The position numbers and the translations under genes are program-made. Positions 36,827-42,878 of a stretch of 44,935 bases of DNA are shown piece by piece. How positions within the stretch are numbered: position 1 is the first letter of the stretch; each line of letters starts with the position of its first letter. The DNA comes from a bacterium (lineage in GTDB: Bacteria > JACRDZ01 > JAQUKH01), in contig JAQUKH010000023.1 of the NCBI GenBank assembly GCA_028719205.1, forward strand, positions 1-44,935, in the 5' to 3' direction. The notes beneath the pieces were generated by a model. That model worked only from the letters and a program-made list of their open reading frames with translations, searched no databases and was not told the origin of the DNA.

Positions 36827-37825
36827 ATGATTTCCATAATTATACCTGTTTATAATAGCGCAAGCACGCTGGAAGATTGTTTGGATCATATATTCAAACA
36901 GGAATATATCGACTATGAGGTCATTGTTGTCGATGACGGTTCCACTGACCGTTCAGCAGGGATAGCCTCTGAATTTAAACTTAAACTTATACCGATGTGC
37001 CGCAATAAAGGAGCGGGCGCGGCCAGAAATCGCGGCGCGAGAGAAGCAAAAGGTGATATTTTATGTTTCACGGATTCTGATTGTATAGTACCCCCGGATT
37101 GGCTTTTAAAGATAGCCGGGCAGTTTGATGATAAAAATACAGGTGCCGTAGGAGGAGGATACGCGTTTTCGGCCGGGAACAGCGTGCTGGAAATATTTGC
37201 TCATCTTGAACTGGTTTATAGAAGAAGCGGATTCCCGAAATTTGTTTCTGCCGCGGTATCTAATAATCTGGCCTGCCGTAAGGAAATATTCGAAAAACTG
37301 GGAGGGTTTCCTGAATATTTCACGGGGGCGGGCATGGAGGAAATTGTTTTTACCTTCGCGTTAAGCCGAAAGTATAAATTGATATGGGATAGTTCTAACG
37401 GTGTCGGGCATTATTTTTGTGATAAAATAAAAAATTATTTAAAACAGCAATATATCTTCGCGTACAGGGCAGCGTTAGTAACAGTTTTTATTCCCGCTAT
37501 ATCTTCTGTGGAAATATTCCGGCATAAAAATAATATTTTACAGCCGCTTAGTTTCTATCTAAGTCATTTTTTCCTTTTGCTCTCTGTTTTTTCCATAAAA
37601 TACGGAATACTGTTTATTTTGTTTTTATTTTTAATGTTTCTGTCTAATTTAAACTTTCTGTTGTTTATCCGTAAAAAAATATCTTTGTTCTCTTTTTGGA
37701 AAGTATTGGTATATATATATATAAGAAATTTCGCCTGGAGCGCGGGTTTTATTACGGGAATCGCGGCAGGGATTTTGCGCAGGAAAAGAGATCTTTCCCG
37801 TATATGGCTGGAGACTTATAAATGA
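36827..37825 (+). CDS. GT2 glycosyltransferase with C-terminal membrane helices
   Basis: ISIIIPVYN, VVDDGSTD, GAGAARN.GA, FTDSDC.VP.DWL, LGGF.E. Confidence 0.92.
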   Translation: MISIIIPVYNSASTLEDCLDHIFKQEYIDYEVIVVDDGSTDRSAGIASEFKLKLIPMCRNKGAGAARNRGAREAKGDILCFTDSDCIVPPDWLLKIAGQFDDKNTGAVGGGYAFSAGNSVLEIFAHLELVYRRSGFPKFVSAAVSNNLACRKEIFEKLGGFPEYFTGAGMEEIVFTFALSRKYKLIWDSSNGVGHYFCDKIKNYLKQQYIFAYRAALVTVFIPAISSVEIFRHKNNILQPLSFYLSHFFLLLSVFSIKYGILFILFLFLMFLSNLNFLLFIRKKISLFSFWKVLVYIYIRNFAWSAGFITGIAAGILRRKRDLSRIWLETYK

Positions 37826-39261
37826 AAATATTATTGTTAGTTGCTCCTTATAATCCATGTGAGTATTATCCCGGGCATCAGGCCAAACCCTCAAGGCTCG
37901 CGCTTAACAAAAACCTGGGATTTATTCCGGGAGCTACAACGCCGCTTGGCCCGTTATATGTTGCCGCTGTGTTGAAAAAAGCCGGGTACGAGGTAAAATT
38001 CATGGATGGGATCTTCCATAGCTGGGAGGAAGAAGAAAAAATCATAAGAGATGAACTTCCGTCGGTAATAGGGATATCTGTTACGGCCTTTGGATTTGAA
38101 CGGACAAAACGGCTGACCGCGATCATAAAAAAGATCAGCCCTGAAATATTTACGGTTATCGGAGGGCCGTATCCTGATGCAGTACAGGAAAAATGCCTGG
38201 AAGATGATCCCAATCTGGATGTTGTCTCTATTGGCGATGGTGAATATACCATGCGTGATCTATGTTACGCTTTAGAAAACAAAAAGGACCTGTCAGGAGT
38301 AAAAGGTATAGCCTTTCGGAACGGAGCCGGCAGGATCATAAAAAATCCAAGCCGTCCTTTTATCGAAAATTTAGATGAGTTGCCTTTTCCGGCGAGAGAA
38401 TTAGTGGACGTAAAAAAATATTCTCCCGCAATCGGACATTATAAAAAACTACCGAACGCGACTATTATTGGTTCGCGGGGATGCAAAGGCCAGTGTATTT
38501 TCTGCCACACCAAAATATTTCCGGATCTTTATACGCGTTTCAGAAAACCTGAATTTGTGGTTGAAGAAATGGAAAAACTGGTTAAAGACCACGGGATAAA
38601 GGATTTCCTGTTCTGGGACAATAATCTTACGGAAGACAAAGAAAGGATTATTATCCTTTGTGAGGAGATAATAAAGAGAAAATTGAATATAATCTGGTCA
38701 GGAGGCACGCGCGCTGATACGATTGACGAAGAAATTATTACTGTAATGAAACGGTCCGGATGCTGGAAGCTACTGGTAGGCGTGGAATCGGGATCGCAAA
38801 AGAGCCTGGACATTTTAAATAAAGGTGAGACCGTGGAGCAGGTTGAAAAAGCCATAGGCTGGATAAAAAAAGCCGGTATTTCCGTATTTGCCACGTTTAT
38901 ATTCGGTATTCCGGGAGAAACCTATCAGGATGCCTTAAAAACAATAGCTTTTGCTAAAAAGCTCGATCCGGATGTCGCGAAATTTTTCACTTTATCCTGT
39001 AATCCGGGAAGCATTATAAGCAAAAAAGTACATGAATATGGAAATATGCCGCTTGATTCGCACGCGCAGTCTTTTCACGCGGCCGGTTTTGTACCTTATA
39101 CTATGACACACGCCGAGCTTGAAGAGGTATTCAACCGCGCCTATAAGGAATTTTATATAAGGTCTTCATATATTTTGAAAAGAGCATTAAAAATTCGCAG
39201 TATCGAAGATATAAAACAGAATATCCGTGGTTTTTTCGCCTTTAAGCAGGAAAATTATTAA
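37822..39261 (+). CDS. Cobalamin-binding radical SAM protein (4)
   Basis: PLG.LYVAA, IGGP, GDGE, LD.LPFPAR, SRGCKGQCIFC, FWDNN, GVESGSQ, FIFG.PGET, AY.EFY.R. Confidence 0.93.
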   Translation: MKILLLVAPYNPCEYYPGHQAKPSRLALNKNLGFIPGATTPLGPLYVAAVLKKAGYEVKFMDGIFHSWEEEEKIIRDELPSVIGISVTAFGFERTKRLTAIIKKISPEIFTVIGGPYPDAVQEKCLEDDPNLDVVSIGDGEYTMRDLCYALENKKDLSGVKGIAFRNGAGRIIKNPSRPFIENLDELPFPARELVDVKKYSPAIGHYKKLPNATIIGSRGCKGQCIFCHTKIFPDLYTRFRKPEFVVEEMEKLVKDHGIKDFLFWDNNLTEDKERIIILCEEIIKRKLNIIWSGGTRADTIDEEIITVMKRSGCWKLLVGVESGSQKSLDILNKGETVEQVEKAIGWIKKAGISVFATFIFGIPGETYQDALKTIAFAKKLDPDVAKFFTLSCNPGSIISKKVHEYGNMPLDSHAQSFHAAGFVPYTMTHAELEEVFNRAYKEFYIRSSYILKRALKIRSIEDIKQNIRGFFAFKQENY

Positions 39262-39279
39262 TATTATTAAGGGAAAATT

Positions 39280-40836
39280 ATGAAGGTAGTTTTTGTTTAC
39301 ATGGGAACTATAAATCTGGGGATTGAATCTCTCGCCGGTATGCTTGAGGCTCACGGGCATAAAACCGATCTGATATATGACCCCGCTTTATTTGATGACA
39401 AAAGATATATATATTCTCCACGCTTAGCCAGGTTATTCAATCAGGAAAAAATAATAATAGAAAAGATCCTTGAGAGCCGGCCGGATCTGATAGCTTTCTC
39501 GGTTCTTACTTATAATTATCAGTGGGCTTCACGTATGGCTCAGGGCCTAAAGAAAAAATTACCGCAAGTTCCTATAGTATTTGGCGGGCATCATCCTACA
39601 CTTTTACCCGAAAGAGTTATAAAGGATGATTTTGTTGATTTTTTAGTTGTTGGAGAGGGTGAATACGCATTATTGGATCTGGCAAATGCCTTGGAAAAGG
39701 GGGGTGATTGCCATAATATAGAAAATGTATGGAGCAAGAAAGACGGGAAGATAATATCGAATCCCGTCAGGAAGTTAATTGAAGACCTGGATGTTATTCC
39801 TTTGCCTGATAAAGAGTTATTTCAAAAATATATTCCCTCGCAGGATGAATATATTATTATTTCCGGAAGGGGATGTCCTTTCAGATGCACTTTTTGCTGT
39901 AATCCCGTCTGGCATAAAATTTATGAGGGTAAAGGCCGGTTTGTAAGAAAACGAAGTGTTGCGAATGTAATTGAAGAATTAAAAGTTAATAAGAAGAAAT
40001 ATGGTTTTAAAACAATTTATTTTGCCGATGAAGCTTTTACCTGGAACAGTGAATGGATCAGGCAATTCGCGGAATCTTACGGGAAACAAATTCAAGTTCC
40101 GTTTAAATGTGTCTGCCATCCCTTGCAGCTTGATGAAGAGATTGTCGGTTTATTAAAAAAGGCCGGTTGTTACGCGGTTGAGATAGGAATTCAGACGATT
40201 GATGAAGAACTGAAAAGATCTTTATTGCGAAGAACTGAAAGTAACACGGAGGTAAAAGAGGCAATAGAAAGATGTCATAAATACGGGCTGACAATAATCG
40301 CAGACCATATATTCGGGCTCCCGGGGGATAAGGAGGAATTTCTGGAAAAAGCGGCGTGTTTTTATTCTCAGGTCCGGCCTCATAGAATAACCGATTATAC
40401 GCTTTCCTATTCCCCTGAAACCGCATTGCTTGAAACTGCCTGTAAAATGGGAATAGTTGACGCTGAACAATTGGAATGCATTGAAAGCGGGCGTGATAAT
40501 TCCTATATCCACGGCGGATCAACTAAGGATAAGCATCAAAAAAGAATAGCGGAAAATTTTATAGTTTTTTTTAAGTTAATACCTTTTATACCGGATAAAC
40601 TTGTTATTTTAATAATAAAGAAAAAAACTTACCGTTATTTCCACCTTTTCCCAAAACCGTTTTTAGCCATTTTGGACCTTTTGACAGTAATTTTTATATC
40701 CCACGAATATAGGGCTTTAAATTATCTTAAGTATTATTACCGTGAACTAAAGAAATATTTCAAATTAAAATTTCGTTTTAAACGGGGATCAAATGTACAA
40801 AAATCAAAGCTTAAGCCTGGTCATGCCGGCGTATAA
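39280..40836 (+). CDS. Cobalamin-binding radical SAM protein (5)
   Basis: LG.ESL...L...GH, FGG.HPT, GEGE, GRGCPFRCTFCCN, RS..NVI.E, F.DE.F, GIQT, HIFGLPG. Confidence 0.93.
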   Translation: MKVVFVYMGTINLGIESLAGMLEAHGHKTDLIYDPALFDDKRYIYSPRLARLFNQEKIIIEKILESRPDLIAFSVLTYNYQWASRMAQGLKKKLPQVPIVFGGHHPTLLPERVIKDDFVDFLVVGEGEYALLDLANALEKGGDCHNIENVWSKKDGKIISNPVRKLIEDLDVIPLPDKELFQKYIPSQDEYIIISGRGCPFRCTFCCNPVWHKIYEGKGRFVRKRSVANVIEELKVNKKKYGFKTIYFADEAFTWNSEWIRQFAESYGKQIQVPFKCVCHPLQLDEEIVGLLKKAGCYAVEIGIQTIDEELKRSLLRRTESNTEVKEAIERCHKYGLTIIADHIFGLPGDKEEFLEKAACFYSQVRPHRITDYTLSYSPETALLETACKMGIVDAEQLECIESGRDNSYIHGGSTKDKHQKRIAENFIVFFKLIPFIPDKLVILIIKKKTYRYFHLFPKPFLAILDLLTVIFISHEYRALNYLKYYYRELKKYFKLKFRFKRGSNVQKSKLKPGHAGV

Positions 40837-41494
40837 TGAAAAAGAGGCTGTTGCGGAGGTTATTTCAGGTTATAAAAAACTTGGTATAATCGATGAGATT
40901 ATTGTTGTTGATAATAATTCAACCGATGGGACAGGAGAAAAGGCTTTAAACTTGGGGGTAAGGGTAGTAAAAGAACCAAAACAGGGTTACGGTTACGCCT
41001 GTATCCGCGGTTTAAAAGAGGCAACCGGAGATCTGGTAATTATAATTGAATGCGACGGAACTTTCAGGCCGGAAGATGTTGATAAACTTTTAAAATATAT
41101 TGAAGGTTATGATATGGTTATCGGGAGCAGGGTGCACAATGATTTAAATCACGCTAACGCCAATATGGATCGGGTGATCCGGTGGGGAAATTTTGTTCTG
41201 GCAAAGGTTATGGAGGTATTTTACGCGGGCGATTATAAATTAAATGATGTCGGCTGCACCTTTCGCGTTATCAAAAAGGCCTCATTAGAACGGTTTGTTG
41301 ATAAATTAAGGATAGGGGGCGAGGATTTTACCCCGGAGTTAACCTTTGAAGCTTTAAAGGCAAATGCCGCGATAATTCAGATCCCGATAAGTTATCAGCC
41401 AAGGATAGGGGAAAGCAAACTTTCTCCTGACAGGCTGCATTCTATCAGGATAGGATTAAAACATTTTTTCCACATAATTTCCAGAAGATTTTGA
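40793..41494 (+). CDS. GT2, polyprenyl-phosphate sugar synthase (DPM1)-like
   Basis: VMPAYNE, VVDNNSTD, QGYG.A...G, ECDGT, V.GSR, L.DVGCT.R, PI.Y.PR.GESKL. Confidence 0.9.
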   Translation: MYKNQSLSLVMPAYNEKEAVAEVISGYKKLGIIDEIIVVDNNSTDGTGEKALNLGVRVVKEPKQGYGYACIRGLKEATGDLVIIIECDGTFRPEDVDKLLKYIEGYDMVIGSRVHNDLNHANANMDRVIRWGNFVLAKVMEVFYAGDYKLNDVGCTFRVIKKASLERFVDKLRIGGEDFTPELTFEALKANAAIIQIPISYQPRIGESKLSPDRLHSIRIGLKHFFHIISRRF

Positions 41495-41501
41495 GATTAT
41501 T

Positions 41502-41708
41502 ATGGAAGCTAAGCATTCAAATAAAATATTTTTAAGCCTTATATTTGCCAGTTTAGTAATGGTCGTTGGCCTTTTTTTCTACAACGCGTTACATGACCCT
41601 GCCAATGAGCCTGTAATTCCGAATATTGATGTTCCAGCGGTAAAAGCAAAGATAAAAGACGCCGGTTTGGTTCCTGTTGAGGCTAAATATTATAAGGAAT
41701 TAAAATAG
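41502..41708 (+). CDS. Small single-TM protein ending in EAKYYKELK
   Basis: 68 aa with one hydrophobic helix; TAG stop abuts the in-frame ATG of the next gene. Confidence 0.75.
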   Translation: MEAKHSNKIFLSLIFASLVMVVGLFFYNALHDPANEPVIPNIDVPAVKAKIKDAGLVPVEAKYYKELK

Positions 41709-42692
41709 ATGGCAAAACCCAAAATAATCCAATGTTTGCTTTGTCCTAAAGAGTGTAAGCTTTATGATGGGCAAAGAGGTGATTGCAGGGTGCGCATACA
41801 TCTGGACGGAAAGCTGCAGACCCTCGTATATGGCCGTCCATGCGCTGTCCATATTGATCCGGTTGAGAAAAAACCGGTTTATCATCTGTTGCCTGGAAGC
41901 CAGGCATTTTCCATTGCTACGGCCGGATGTAATTTGCATTGCAAGTTTTGCCAGAATTGGGAAATCTCGCAAAAGAACCCGGAGGAAACCGTTAATTATT
42001 TTATGCCCCCTAAAGATGTTGTTAACAATGCGTTGACAAGCGGTTCAAAGTCAATTGCCTATACCTATTCAGACCCGAATATTTATTATGAATATGTTTT
42101 GGATACGGCAAAACTGGCAAAAAAGGCAGGATTGAAAAATATAGTTATTTCAGCGGGATATATTAATCCTGAGCCGCTAAAAGAACTTTCAGAATTTCTT
42201 GATGTTTATAAGGTTGACCTAAAGGCCTTTAATAATAAGTTTTATCAGGAAATATGTTCCGCCACGCTGCAGCCGGTCCTTGAAACTTTGAAAAATTTAA
42301 AAAAATTGGAGGTATGGACCGAGATCGTTAATTTGATTATCCCTACCTTAAATGATGATTTTACTGAAATACGGAAGATGTGCAAATGGATAAAAAGCGA
42401 ATTGGGAAATGATGTTCCGATCCATTTCTTACAATTTTACCCTCAGTATAAATTAAATAATCTTCCGCCTACACCGCTTGAAACTTTAACTGGGGCCAGA
42501 AAAATTGCCATAGAAGAAGGATTGAATTATGTTTATTTGGGAAACATCCCGCAGGGTGAGGGTAATAATACCTATTGCCCAAACTGCAAAAATCTTTTGA
42601 TCGAGCGGATAGGATATTTTGTGAAGGAAATGAGGATCAATAACGGGTTATGTAATTTTTGCAAATTTAAAATTGCCGGAATCTGGGGGTAA
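41709..42692 (+). CDS. amrS: AmmeMemoRadiSam-system radical SAM enzyme (PFL-activase-like), lacking the usual N-terminal motif
   Basis: CLLCP..C....G..G.C.VR, DPVEKKP.YH..PG, GCNLHCKFCQNWEISQ, IAYTY..P, P.HF..FYP.YK, YVYLGN, T.CP.C...LI.R.G, C..C...I.G.W. Confidence 0.88.
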   Translation: MAKPKIIQCLLCPKECKLYDGQRGDCRVRIHLDGKLQTLVYGRPCAVHIDPVEKKPVYHLLPGSQAFSIATAGCNLHCKFCQNWEISQKNPEETVNYFMPPKDVVNNALTSGSKSIAYTYSDPNIYYEYVLDTAKLAKKAGLKNIVISAGYINPEPLKELSEFLDVYKVDLKAFNNKFYQEICSATLQPVLETLKNLKKLEVWTEIVNLIIPTLNDDFTEIRKMCKWIKSELGNDVPIHFLQFYPQYKLNNLPPTPLETLTGARKIAIEEGLNYVYLGNIPQGEGNNTYCPNCKNLLIERIGYFVKEMRINNGLCNFCKFKIAGIWG

Positions 42693-42693
42693 A

Positions 42694-42834
42694 ATGACGC
42701 GTAAAGAATTTCTTAAAAGATCGGTTTTATTTATTACAGGATTATTTTTTATCGGAAAAACAAAATTATTTGTCAAAATTTTAGGTTCATCAAAAAAGGA
42801 TTTAAAAGAAGCAAGATTTTATAAAATATTATAA
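42694..42834 (+). CDS. Uncalled 46-aa peptide with Tat-like N-terminus and C-terminal EARFYKIL
   Basis: MTRKEFLKRSVLFITGLFFIGKTKLFVKILGSSKKDLKEARFYKIL*; ATG 1 nt after the upstream stop, with GGGGG upstream. Confidence 0.7.
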   Translation: MTRKEFLKRSVLFITGLFFIGKTKLFVKILGSSKKDLKEARFYKIL

Positions 42835-42838
42835 TGGC

Positions 42839-42878
42839 AGGGGGGGTCCCGCCTGCGGCAGGCAGGTAAACCCGCCCT
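42839..42878. repeat. Nested palindrome between convergent genes (possible bidirectional terminator)
   Basis: Outer arms AGGGGGGGT / ACCCGCCCT (one mismatch) enclose CCCGCCTGCGGCAGGCAGG. Confidence 0.6.

Follow-up and report, generated by a model that had tools for sequence, protein, structure and literature searches.

Enzymes of the NCBIfam family TIGR04337 are the radical S-adenosylmethionine (SAM) enzymes of the three-protein AmmeMemoRadiSam system, whose other members are A, an AMMECR1-like protein, and B, a Memo-like protein. The canonical enzyme is cytoplasmic, has no leader and begins with a β-strand (MKEALFYEKL in the paralog at G000:C10, L002 1486-2478, of the genome considered here). 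The subject of this report is a head-to-tail trio of genes on the + strand at positions 41502-42834 of a 44,935-nucleotide stretch of bacterial DNA (contig JAQUKH010000023.1 of assembly GCA_028719205.1; the window, in what follows, is the whole of this stretch). The trio encodes a 68-residue membrane peptide, a 327-residue radical SAM enzyme and a 46-residue peptide. The window enzyme and the canonical form are alike in their 4-Cys N-terminus, CxxxCxxC motif, paired C-terminal CxxC and core, which resembles that of the pyruvate formate-lyase (PFL) activase, and both match the same family model (the window enzyme with 390.7 bits, E 4.9e-117, the cut-off being 220; the paralog with 332.5 bits). 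They differ in that the strand with which the canonical chain begins is found, at the window locus, on the two separate small proteins.

Leader-fused enzymes of ~365-415 residues (P0034, P0067, P0118, L009) are 52-58% identical to the window enzyme over the whole aligned chain and 57-62% identical over the enzyme part. They share with the window cassette the order leader, linker, EAxxY, first Cys, and have lipoprotein-type Memo-AMMECR1 neighbours. In these relatives, however, everything is on one polypeptide with either a Tat-type (twin-arginine translocation) or a hydrophobic N-terminus, whereas the window has three genes and provides both types of leader for one enzyme.

Tat hitchhiking, in which a cofactor-containing subunit without a signal of its own is exported bound to a signal-bearing partner (PMC10924467, PMC4273604), has been described for subunits of hydrogenase and formate dehydrogenase and for PaoABC. 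The window cassette likewise places a signal-less folded cofactor protein beside a partner with a twin-arginine-type leader, in a genome with Tat genes. On the other hand, the known carriers are full-size proteins with cofactors of their own, while the carrier here would consist of a signal peptide and a 10-residue strand hook. Small Tat-leader proteins encoded beside a redox enzyme are also on record, as TIGR02811 ('formate dehydrogenase region TAT target') and NF038009 ('twin-arginine translocation system-associated protein'), with models of 66-70 profile positions. Of 20 downstream peptides, 3 match TIGR02811 and 4 match NF038009 in the leader region, at 12-26 bits against cut-offs of 48 and 100; the window's peptide matches neither, and the C-terminal motifs are unrelated by scores.

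Provision of a strand in trans is familiar from donor-strand complementation in chaperone-usher pili and from the engineered strand 11 of split green fluorescent protein. In those systems an incomplete β-sheet is completed by a strand of another polypeptide, as it would be here, and the contacts predicted for the window proteins are strand-to-strand. Here, however, the donors are carried on membrane-targeting segments, the acceptor is an iron-sulfur enzyme and the complexes are predicted models only. The split arrangement is a variant of these known kinds, that is, of the TIGR04337 family, of Tat hitchhiking and of the strand supplied in trans. Literature searches, which left out supplements and the founding Memo-AMMECR1 paper (Burroughs et al. 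2019, which reportedly defined these systems), returned no description of split or exported forms. The cassette is probably a naturally split member of the leader-bearing AmmeMemoRadiSam branch, with the first strand supplied in trans by the flanking peptides, whose docking is predicted.

The enzyme and its flanking peptides

The three open reading frames (ORFs) and their ends, VEAKYYKELK and KEARFYKIL, are as given in a preliminary description of this DNA, which had also noticed that the enzyme starts almost directly at its first CxxC. The gene (41709..42692, + strand, assigned as a short-form AmmeMemoRadiSam-type enzyme by TIGR04337 and by Pfam Radical_SAM) begins with MAKPKIIQCLLCP, and 8 residues precede the first Cys. 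The match to TIGR04337 runs from enzyme residue 6 and spans profile positions 11-333 of 349; the first 10 positions are lacking. These constitute the N-terminal strand of the profile (EAxxY), which is not in the enzyme chain, and the EAxxY motif is present on both flanking ORFs. The remainder of the chain is equipped with an N-terminal group of four Cys (C9, C12, C16, C26), the radical SAM motif C74-x3-C78-x2-C81 and a C-terminal CxxC...CxxC; the N-terminal group and C74/C78/C81 are invariant among 23 short forms. The Pfam scan of the enzyme places only Radical_SAM above its cut-off (74 bits), with Fer4_12 just under (21.8 versus 22 bits), and finds no RRE or SPASM domain. The nearest solved structure corresponds to the PFL-activating enzyme core only, and the search of solved structures yielded none containing the N-terminal sub-domain and no like complex.

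According to the preliminary description, family members normally begin with EAx[YF]YxxL just ahead of this CxxC, often after a Tat-like leader, and the rule holds: in 32 of 35 long relatives [AP]x[YFHW][YFW] lies within the 30 residues that precede the first Cys. The distance from the motif to that Cys is 8-14 residues in fused relatives and in the unsplit paralog of this genome. When the alignment to full-length homologs was carried out, the fused relatives aligned across the break, with EAKYY of the upstream peptide lying on their EAxxY. The model of the unsplit paralog (L002, with its MKEALFYEKL start) has strands at residues 2-3, 7-9 and 15-17, at a pLDDT (predicted local distance difference test) of 94-95, which identifies the motif as the strand that opens the Cys-rich N-terminal sub-domain of the family.

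The upstream gene (41502..41708, + strand; ORF list, frame and hydropathy) encodes a 68-residue peptide with an N-terminal transmembrane (TM) segment at residues 9-27, a short helix (IDVPAVKAKIKDAGL) and the C-terminal strand motif VEAKYYKELK, followed by a TAG (41706-41708) that abuts the enzyme ATG. The 19-residue hydropathy is 2.55, and it is TM-grade (1.5-3.1) across upstream peptides, in which a short conserved region of helix-like character, [VI]D[VL]xx[IV]...G.L, lies between the TM segment and the strand. Searched against 1.84 billion proteins, a profile made from 23 upstream peptides matches 331 representative clusters at E<=0.001, 39 of them at E<=1e-10. Nearly all of the best 150 matches are 48-115 residues long and are matched end to end. 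Public copies of the upstream peptide (n=17) are unnamed or called "hypothetical protein", and neither of the window's two peptides matches a family in Pfam or NCBIfam. In one upstream peptide (L016:170-469, genome G022) the helix-plus-strand module is doubled (…SLHPADHW…, …SLHEADHW…). Two others (L018:1314-1523 and L180:1317-1526) bear a Tat-like leader, NRKEFL, from which it follows that position and leader type are not strictly tied. At L180 there is no downstream peptide and a Memo gene begins at the end of the enzyme; at L018 none is seen, the contig ending within the enzyme gene.

The downstream gene (42694..42834, + strand; ORF list) has its ATG 1 nucleotide past the enzyme TAA; an alternative start, TTG at 42673, would give 53 residues in place of 46. 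Its product (MTRKEFLK...KEARFYKIL) opens with a Tat-like leader (MTRKEFLK), continues with a segment of moderate hydrophobicity and then a basic linker, and ends in the strand motif KEARFYKIL. A Tat-like R-[RK]-x-[FVA]-[LFGIY] is found in 21 of 22 distinct downstream peptides versus 3 of 23 upstream ones; 17 of these 21 downstream leaders have RR and 4 have RK. The downstream hydrophobic segments are milder (0.9-2.2 versus 1.5-3.1 upstream) and have a basic linker behind them. (The Tat consensus reads S/T-R-R-x-F-L-K, and mild hydrophobicity with a basic region behind it is a textbook trait of a Tat signal peptide.) The preliminary description had paired one membrane-anchoring with one Tat-like leader. 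The motif counts are consistent with that division; the window's own leader is of the RK kind and matches no Tat model at E<=1. Ten of the 22 downstream peptides (L041, L069, L119, L124, L126, L131, L138, L142, L178, L198) end in L[AI]G right behind the strand motif. The window's peptide lacks this end, and three fused enzymes (P0088, P0098, P0116) have a C-terminal extension ending in LTG.

Predicted structures place both strands on one edge of the enzyme, that of the upstream peptide in a model of a single chain (in cis) and that of the downstream peptide in a complex of separate chains, in line with what had been proposed for the two peptides. The cis model (AlphaFold2, with the upstream ORF and the enzyme translated through the TAG) has a mean pLDDT of 93.7, a helix at residues 44-53 and strands at 59-60, 64-67 and 75-78. 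Residues 41-60 reach pLDDT 95-96, and the position of the stop codon falls in the loop of the hairpin. Three runs with the enzyme and the downstream peptide entered as separate chains gave an interface score (ipSAE) of 0.92, compared with at most 0.59 among 3 controls. (Among solved complexes 58 of 80 reach this mark, and among mismatched pairs 2 of 110; both counts apply only roughly, because custom alignments were used for the prediction.) The runs agree in >=78% of contacts, and the pLDDT of the partner is 55-56. Peptide residues 37-46 are predicted to contact enzyme residues 5-11, 17, 29-41, 127-131 and 153-156. These contacts exclude the C74/C78/C81 cluster loop and involve the same hairpin with which the upstream strand pairs in cis. 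The predicted coincidence of the two sites is read from secondary-structure strings and the contact list, not from a superposition. The complex score is not the memory of a solved complex, because no like complex has been solved; it may lean on fused homologs.

Recurrence of the split arrangement

Among the 120 best database relatives of the enzyme, 80 are short (in the sense that they start <=15 residues before the first Cys), 35 are long and 5 were left unplaced by the script. (Four of these 5 are gene calls whose start falls inside the Cys motif or behind it; the fifth, P0046, is short but was missed by the script's DP.EKKP anchor.) Loci collected from 61 related genomes, a species-level genome collection and metagenome contigs came to 171 distinct enzyme loci. 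A looser motif rule for flanking peptides gave chance ORFs at 22 of 111 fused loci; hence a stricter rule was applied, under which an ORF counts only if it has a start codon, contains a hydrophobic segment and carries the motif no further than 25 residues from its C-terminal end. By this rule flanking peptides are present at 36 of 51 short-enzyme loci (upstream at 25, downstream at 22, both at 11, neither at 15) versus 0 of 117 fused or insert-bearing loci. Upstream, downstream and paired peptides are each scored at 0 of the 110 loci with leader and strand fused in frame, at 0 of the 7 insert-bearing loci and at 0 of 3 loci cut by a contig end, all of which fall under neither. One strict downstream match, at L128, is a false positive by eye. 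The peptide-less short loci include some with variant motifs (L120, L123, L134, L135, L147) and one with a Tat-like peptide that lacks the motif (L076).

In a tree of 168 enzyme cores, built with FastTree and with the cytoplasmic paralog of this genome as root, one clade of 49 (support 0.86) takes in 48 of 48 short forms. (Two loci called short by the script, L025 and L067, have long in-frame N-termini and were set aside before this count.) The forty-ninth member, L053, is a fused sequence. The short forms are one clade in which leader and strand are encoded by separate small genes. Recurrence of the three-gene order, which the preliminary description had put forward as a check, is found in the same genus and also in relatives whose enzyme is only 53-59% identical. 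The contrary case that it had named, a continuous ORF with no downstream peptide, was not encountered in the split clade, apart from the one fused form inside it.

A second species of the same genus (genome G001) retains both peptides beside an enzyme that is 84% identical. Between the window and G001, 55 of 68 residues are identical in the upstream peptide and 27 of 46 in the downstream peptide. The ratio of nonsynonymous to synonymous substitution rates (dN/dS) comes to 0.04 in the upstream and 0.26 in the downstream peptide, and to 0.03 in the enzyme, with dS saturated (~3). Both peptides are under purifying selection. The split is real, old and conserved, and the leader types are consistently different.

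Partner proteins, location and rival explanations

The A and B genes, correctly reported as missing from the window, are both present elsewhere in the genome, on other contigs. A (TIGR04335, AMMECR1-like) occurs once, with 199 bits, and B (TIGR04336, Memo-like) twice, with 279 and 273 bits; thus the co-occurrence with A and B that characterizes the three-protein system is found at the level of the genome. The A protein at G000:C21 (L036 1489-2166, - strand) and the B protein at G000:C1 (L038 1489-2412, - strand) begin with N-termini of the signal or lipobox-like kind. The remaining Memo protein (L037), like the second copy of the radical SAM enzyme (L002), looks cytoplasmic. (The genome can be thought of as having two parallel systems with one A protein in common.) Five further genomes with the short enzyme were compared. 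Four of them (G003, G004, G022, G028) have a B-A fusion with a signal-type start, which is lipobox-like in three, and G001 has separate signal-bearing A and B proteins; each of the five has, in addition, copies of A or B that look cytoplasmic. The gene directly behind the downstream peptide in G022 is the one for the B-A fusion. More generally, Memo/AMMECR1 motifs are found just downstream on the same strand at 25 of 51 short-form, 23 of 110 fused and 6 of 7 insert-bearing loci, and nearly all of 31 examined B or B-A protein starts have a lipobox-like signal. Lipobox-type signals imply that the partner Memo-AMMECR1 proteins reside outside the cytoplasmic membrane. The genome also encodes tatC twice and tatA once. 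Judged from sequence, this context of lipoprotein-type partners and tat genes points outside the cytoplasm.

The most likely scheme starts with gene fission in the leader-bearing branch, by which one chain consisting of leader, EAxxY strand and enzyme, as found in most relatives, would have become three genes, with the upstream TM peptide translationally coupled to the enzyme. Folding and cluster loading of the enzyme would take place in the cytoplasm while a strand edge is still open, and the C-terminal strand of either peptide would then dock along this edge, on the N-terminal Cys-rich hairpin. With the same site serving both peptides, each enzyme molecule would bind one or the other, and completion of the strand would confer a membrane address. 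The upstream peptide would be a membrane tether for the enzyme. The downstream peptide would be a detachable Tat signal, with which the folded iron-sulfur enzyme would cross the membrane as a hitchhiker. A function in targeting or tethering the cofactor-loaded enzyme at or across the membrane is likely, and it is probably the flanking peptides that decide where the enzyme is located. The most elaborate version, with export by a detachable Tat mini-protein through its ten-residue strand hook, hand-over to the membrane peptide, and chemistry on the outer face together with lipoprotein Memo-AMMECR1, is put forward tentatively, as a possibility about which considerable doubt is in order.

The upstream ORF and the enzyme of the window share one frame, with a single TAG between them. 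This point, absent from the preliminary description, bears on an explanation in which the gene is broken or read through, the TAG being due to mutation or sequencing error or else suppressed, and the downstream ORF being a functionless remnant; it is in keeping with this that the read-through product aligns with the fused relatives and folds at the high mean pLDDT cited above. The common frame is, however, exceptional: the upstream peptide is in another frame than the enzyme at 24 of 25 loci and in frame at 1 of 25. The same-genus genome is among the 24, its upstream peptide ending in TAA and being followed by a 10-nucleotide spacer, out of frame with the enzyme. Most upstream ORFs overlap the enzyme start by a few bases, which is the usual layout of translationally coupled genes. 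Moreover, TAG terminates 6 of 42 window ORFs and is an ordinary stop here, and the window enzyme shares its start Met with its five closest database relatives (84-91% identical: P0002, P0003, P0004, P0006 and the 259-residue P0007) among those with sequence ahead of the first Cys. The purifying selection on both peptides, as well as the recurrence of the downstream peptide at 22 of 51 short-form loci, also speaks against a broken or read-through gene, which is largely refuted and deserves next to no credence. Programmed read-through or recoding of the TAG was rejected as well, on the grounds that 1 of 25 loci is in frame and that the same codon ends 6 of 42 window ORFs.

If the split is accepted, the peptides need not be structural parts of the enzyme; they might be substrates or precursors that it modifies at EAxxY. 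A radical SAM gene flanked by small genes whose products end in a conserved motif is what peptide-modifying systems usually look like, and a further conserved feature, the L[AI]G end, is shared by 10 of the 22 downstream peptides. Radical SAM domains related to those of Memo-AMMECR1 systems are also found in predicted peptide-processing systems (PMC7159879). Nevertheless, the motif in question is the enzyme's own first strand in fused relatives and in the unsplit paralog, the predicted contacts lie away from the C74/C78/C81 cluster loop, Pfam finds no RRE or SPASM domain, and the peptide leaders are of the targeting type, not typical recognition leaders. A role as substrates is accordingly improbable. 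Somewhat less so, and still unlikely, is a genuine split without export, in which the Tat-like motif is a mere resemblance and the peptides either retain the enzyme at the cytoplasmic side of the membrane or act as regulators that compete for a single site. Radical SAM chemistry needs SAM and a low-potential reductant, both known in the cytoplasm, many fused relatives have plain hydrophobic leaders with no RR, and the window's RK leader and the ambiguous orientation of the upstream peptide would suit such an arrangement. It is less readily reconciled with the lipobox-type signal that adjoining Memo-AMMECR1 proteins almost always have, with the 17 of 21 Tat-like downstream leaders that are true RR leaders with mild hydrophobicity and a basic region behind, and with the presence of tatA and tatC in the genome.

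Several observations weigh against the split enzyme with strands supplied in trans, and in particular against its export. Outside the cytoplasm, a radical SAM enzyme would still have to be supplied with SAM and a reductant. The window leader reads T-R-K-E-F-L-K, with RK in place of RR, and has no match to TIGR01409 or PF10518 at E<=1; 4 of 20 downstream peptides do match these models, at 13.3-15.8 bits, all below the cut-off of 16.7. Orientation of the upstream peptide by charge comes out as 10 N-in, 7 N-out and 6 ties (n=23), and if both tails face outward, the keeping of two peptides for one site is left unexplained. Docking of the peptides to the enzyme is a prediction only. The alignment behind the cis model included fused homologs, so that this model partly restates them, and an unrelated 49-residue control scored 0.59 with the enzyme, which makes the open strand edge somewhat promiscuous in the model. 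Finally, 15 of 51 short-form loci are without a peptide under the strict rule, and the loci were picked by likeness to the window enzyme and are related to each other, so that the counts describe a clade and are not independent.

Were the proposed split with strands in trans true, a targeting signal would exist as a free-standing gene product hooked to its cargo by one β-strand. This would amount to Tat hitchhiking in its minimal form and give the design of small detachable tags a model from nature. One enzyme with two addressing peptides would have a simple way to set or switch its location. Taken together with the lipoprotein-type partners, this would be a radical SAM enzyme working outside the cytoplasm, of which the literature searches found none described. 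The Memo/AMMECR1/radical SAM system, still uncharacterised, would gain a testable cell-envelope context. For annotation, hundreds of "hypothetical proteins" of 45-100 residues beside these enzymes would become nameable, and the 325-residue enzymes should not be taken as complete on their own.

Surroundings of the cassette and variants among relatives

Upstream of the cassette, at 36827-41494, the window encodes a family 2 glycosyltransferase (GT2), two B12-binding radical SAM proteins (479 and 518 residues) and a second GT2 protein, whose gene overlaps the preceding one by 44 nucleotides. Downstream, a GC-rich hairpin (42839..42878, no strand assigned) occupies the interval between the downstream-peptide gene and a convergent HEAT-repeat gene. 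Its folding energy is -25.9 kcal/mol (z -1.58), which is weak and not significant, 12 of 200 shuffles folding equally well, and a terminator consensus scan of the window lists nothing at the end of the cassette; the hairpin may be a two-way terminator that closes the cassette. The neighbouring B12-binding radical SAM, GT2 and HEAT-repeat genes do not recur with the cassette in the loci examined.

Two variants were seen among the relatives. A second, different radical SAM-like ORF lies beside some fused enzymes with a Tat leader (L023, L045, L152-L154, L159, L187) and has a long N-terminal region ending in …AY..[FL].[NRK]C. The insert-bearing enzymes (L051, L079, L089, L094, L098, L111, L114, and also P0061 and P0099) have a CxxCH insert between an A-R-[FY]-W strand and the first CxxC, and form a leader-bearing sub-clade without flanking peptides. 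CxxCH is the sequence signature of c-type haem attachment, a process that takes place outside the cytoplasm.

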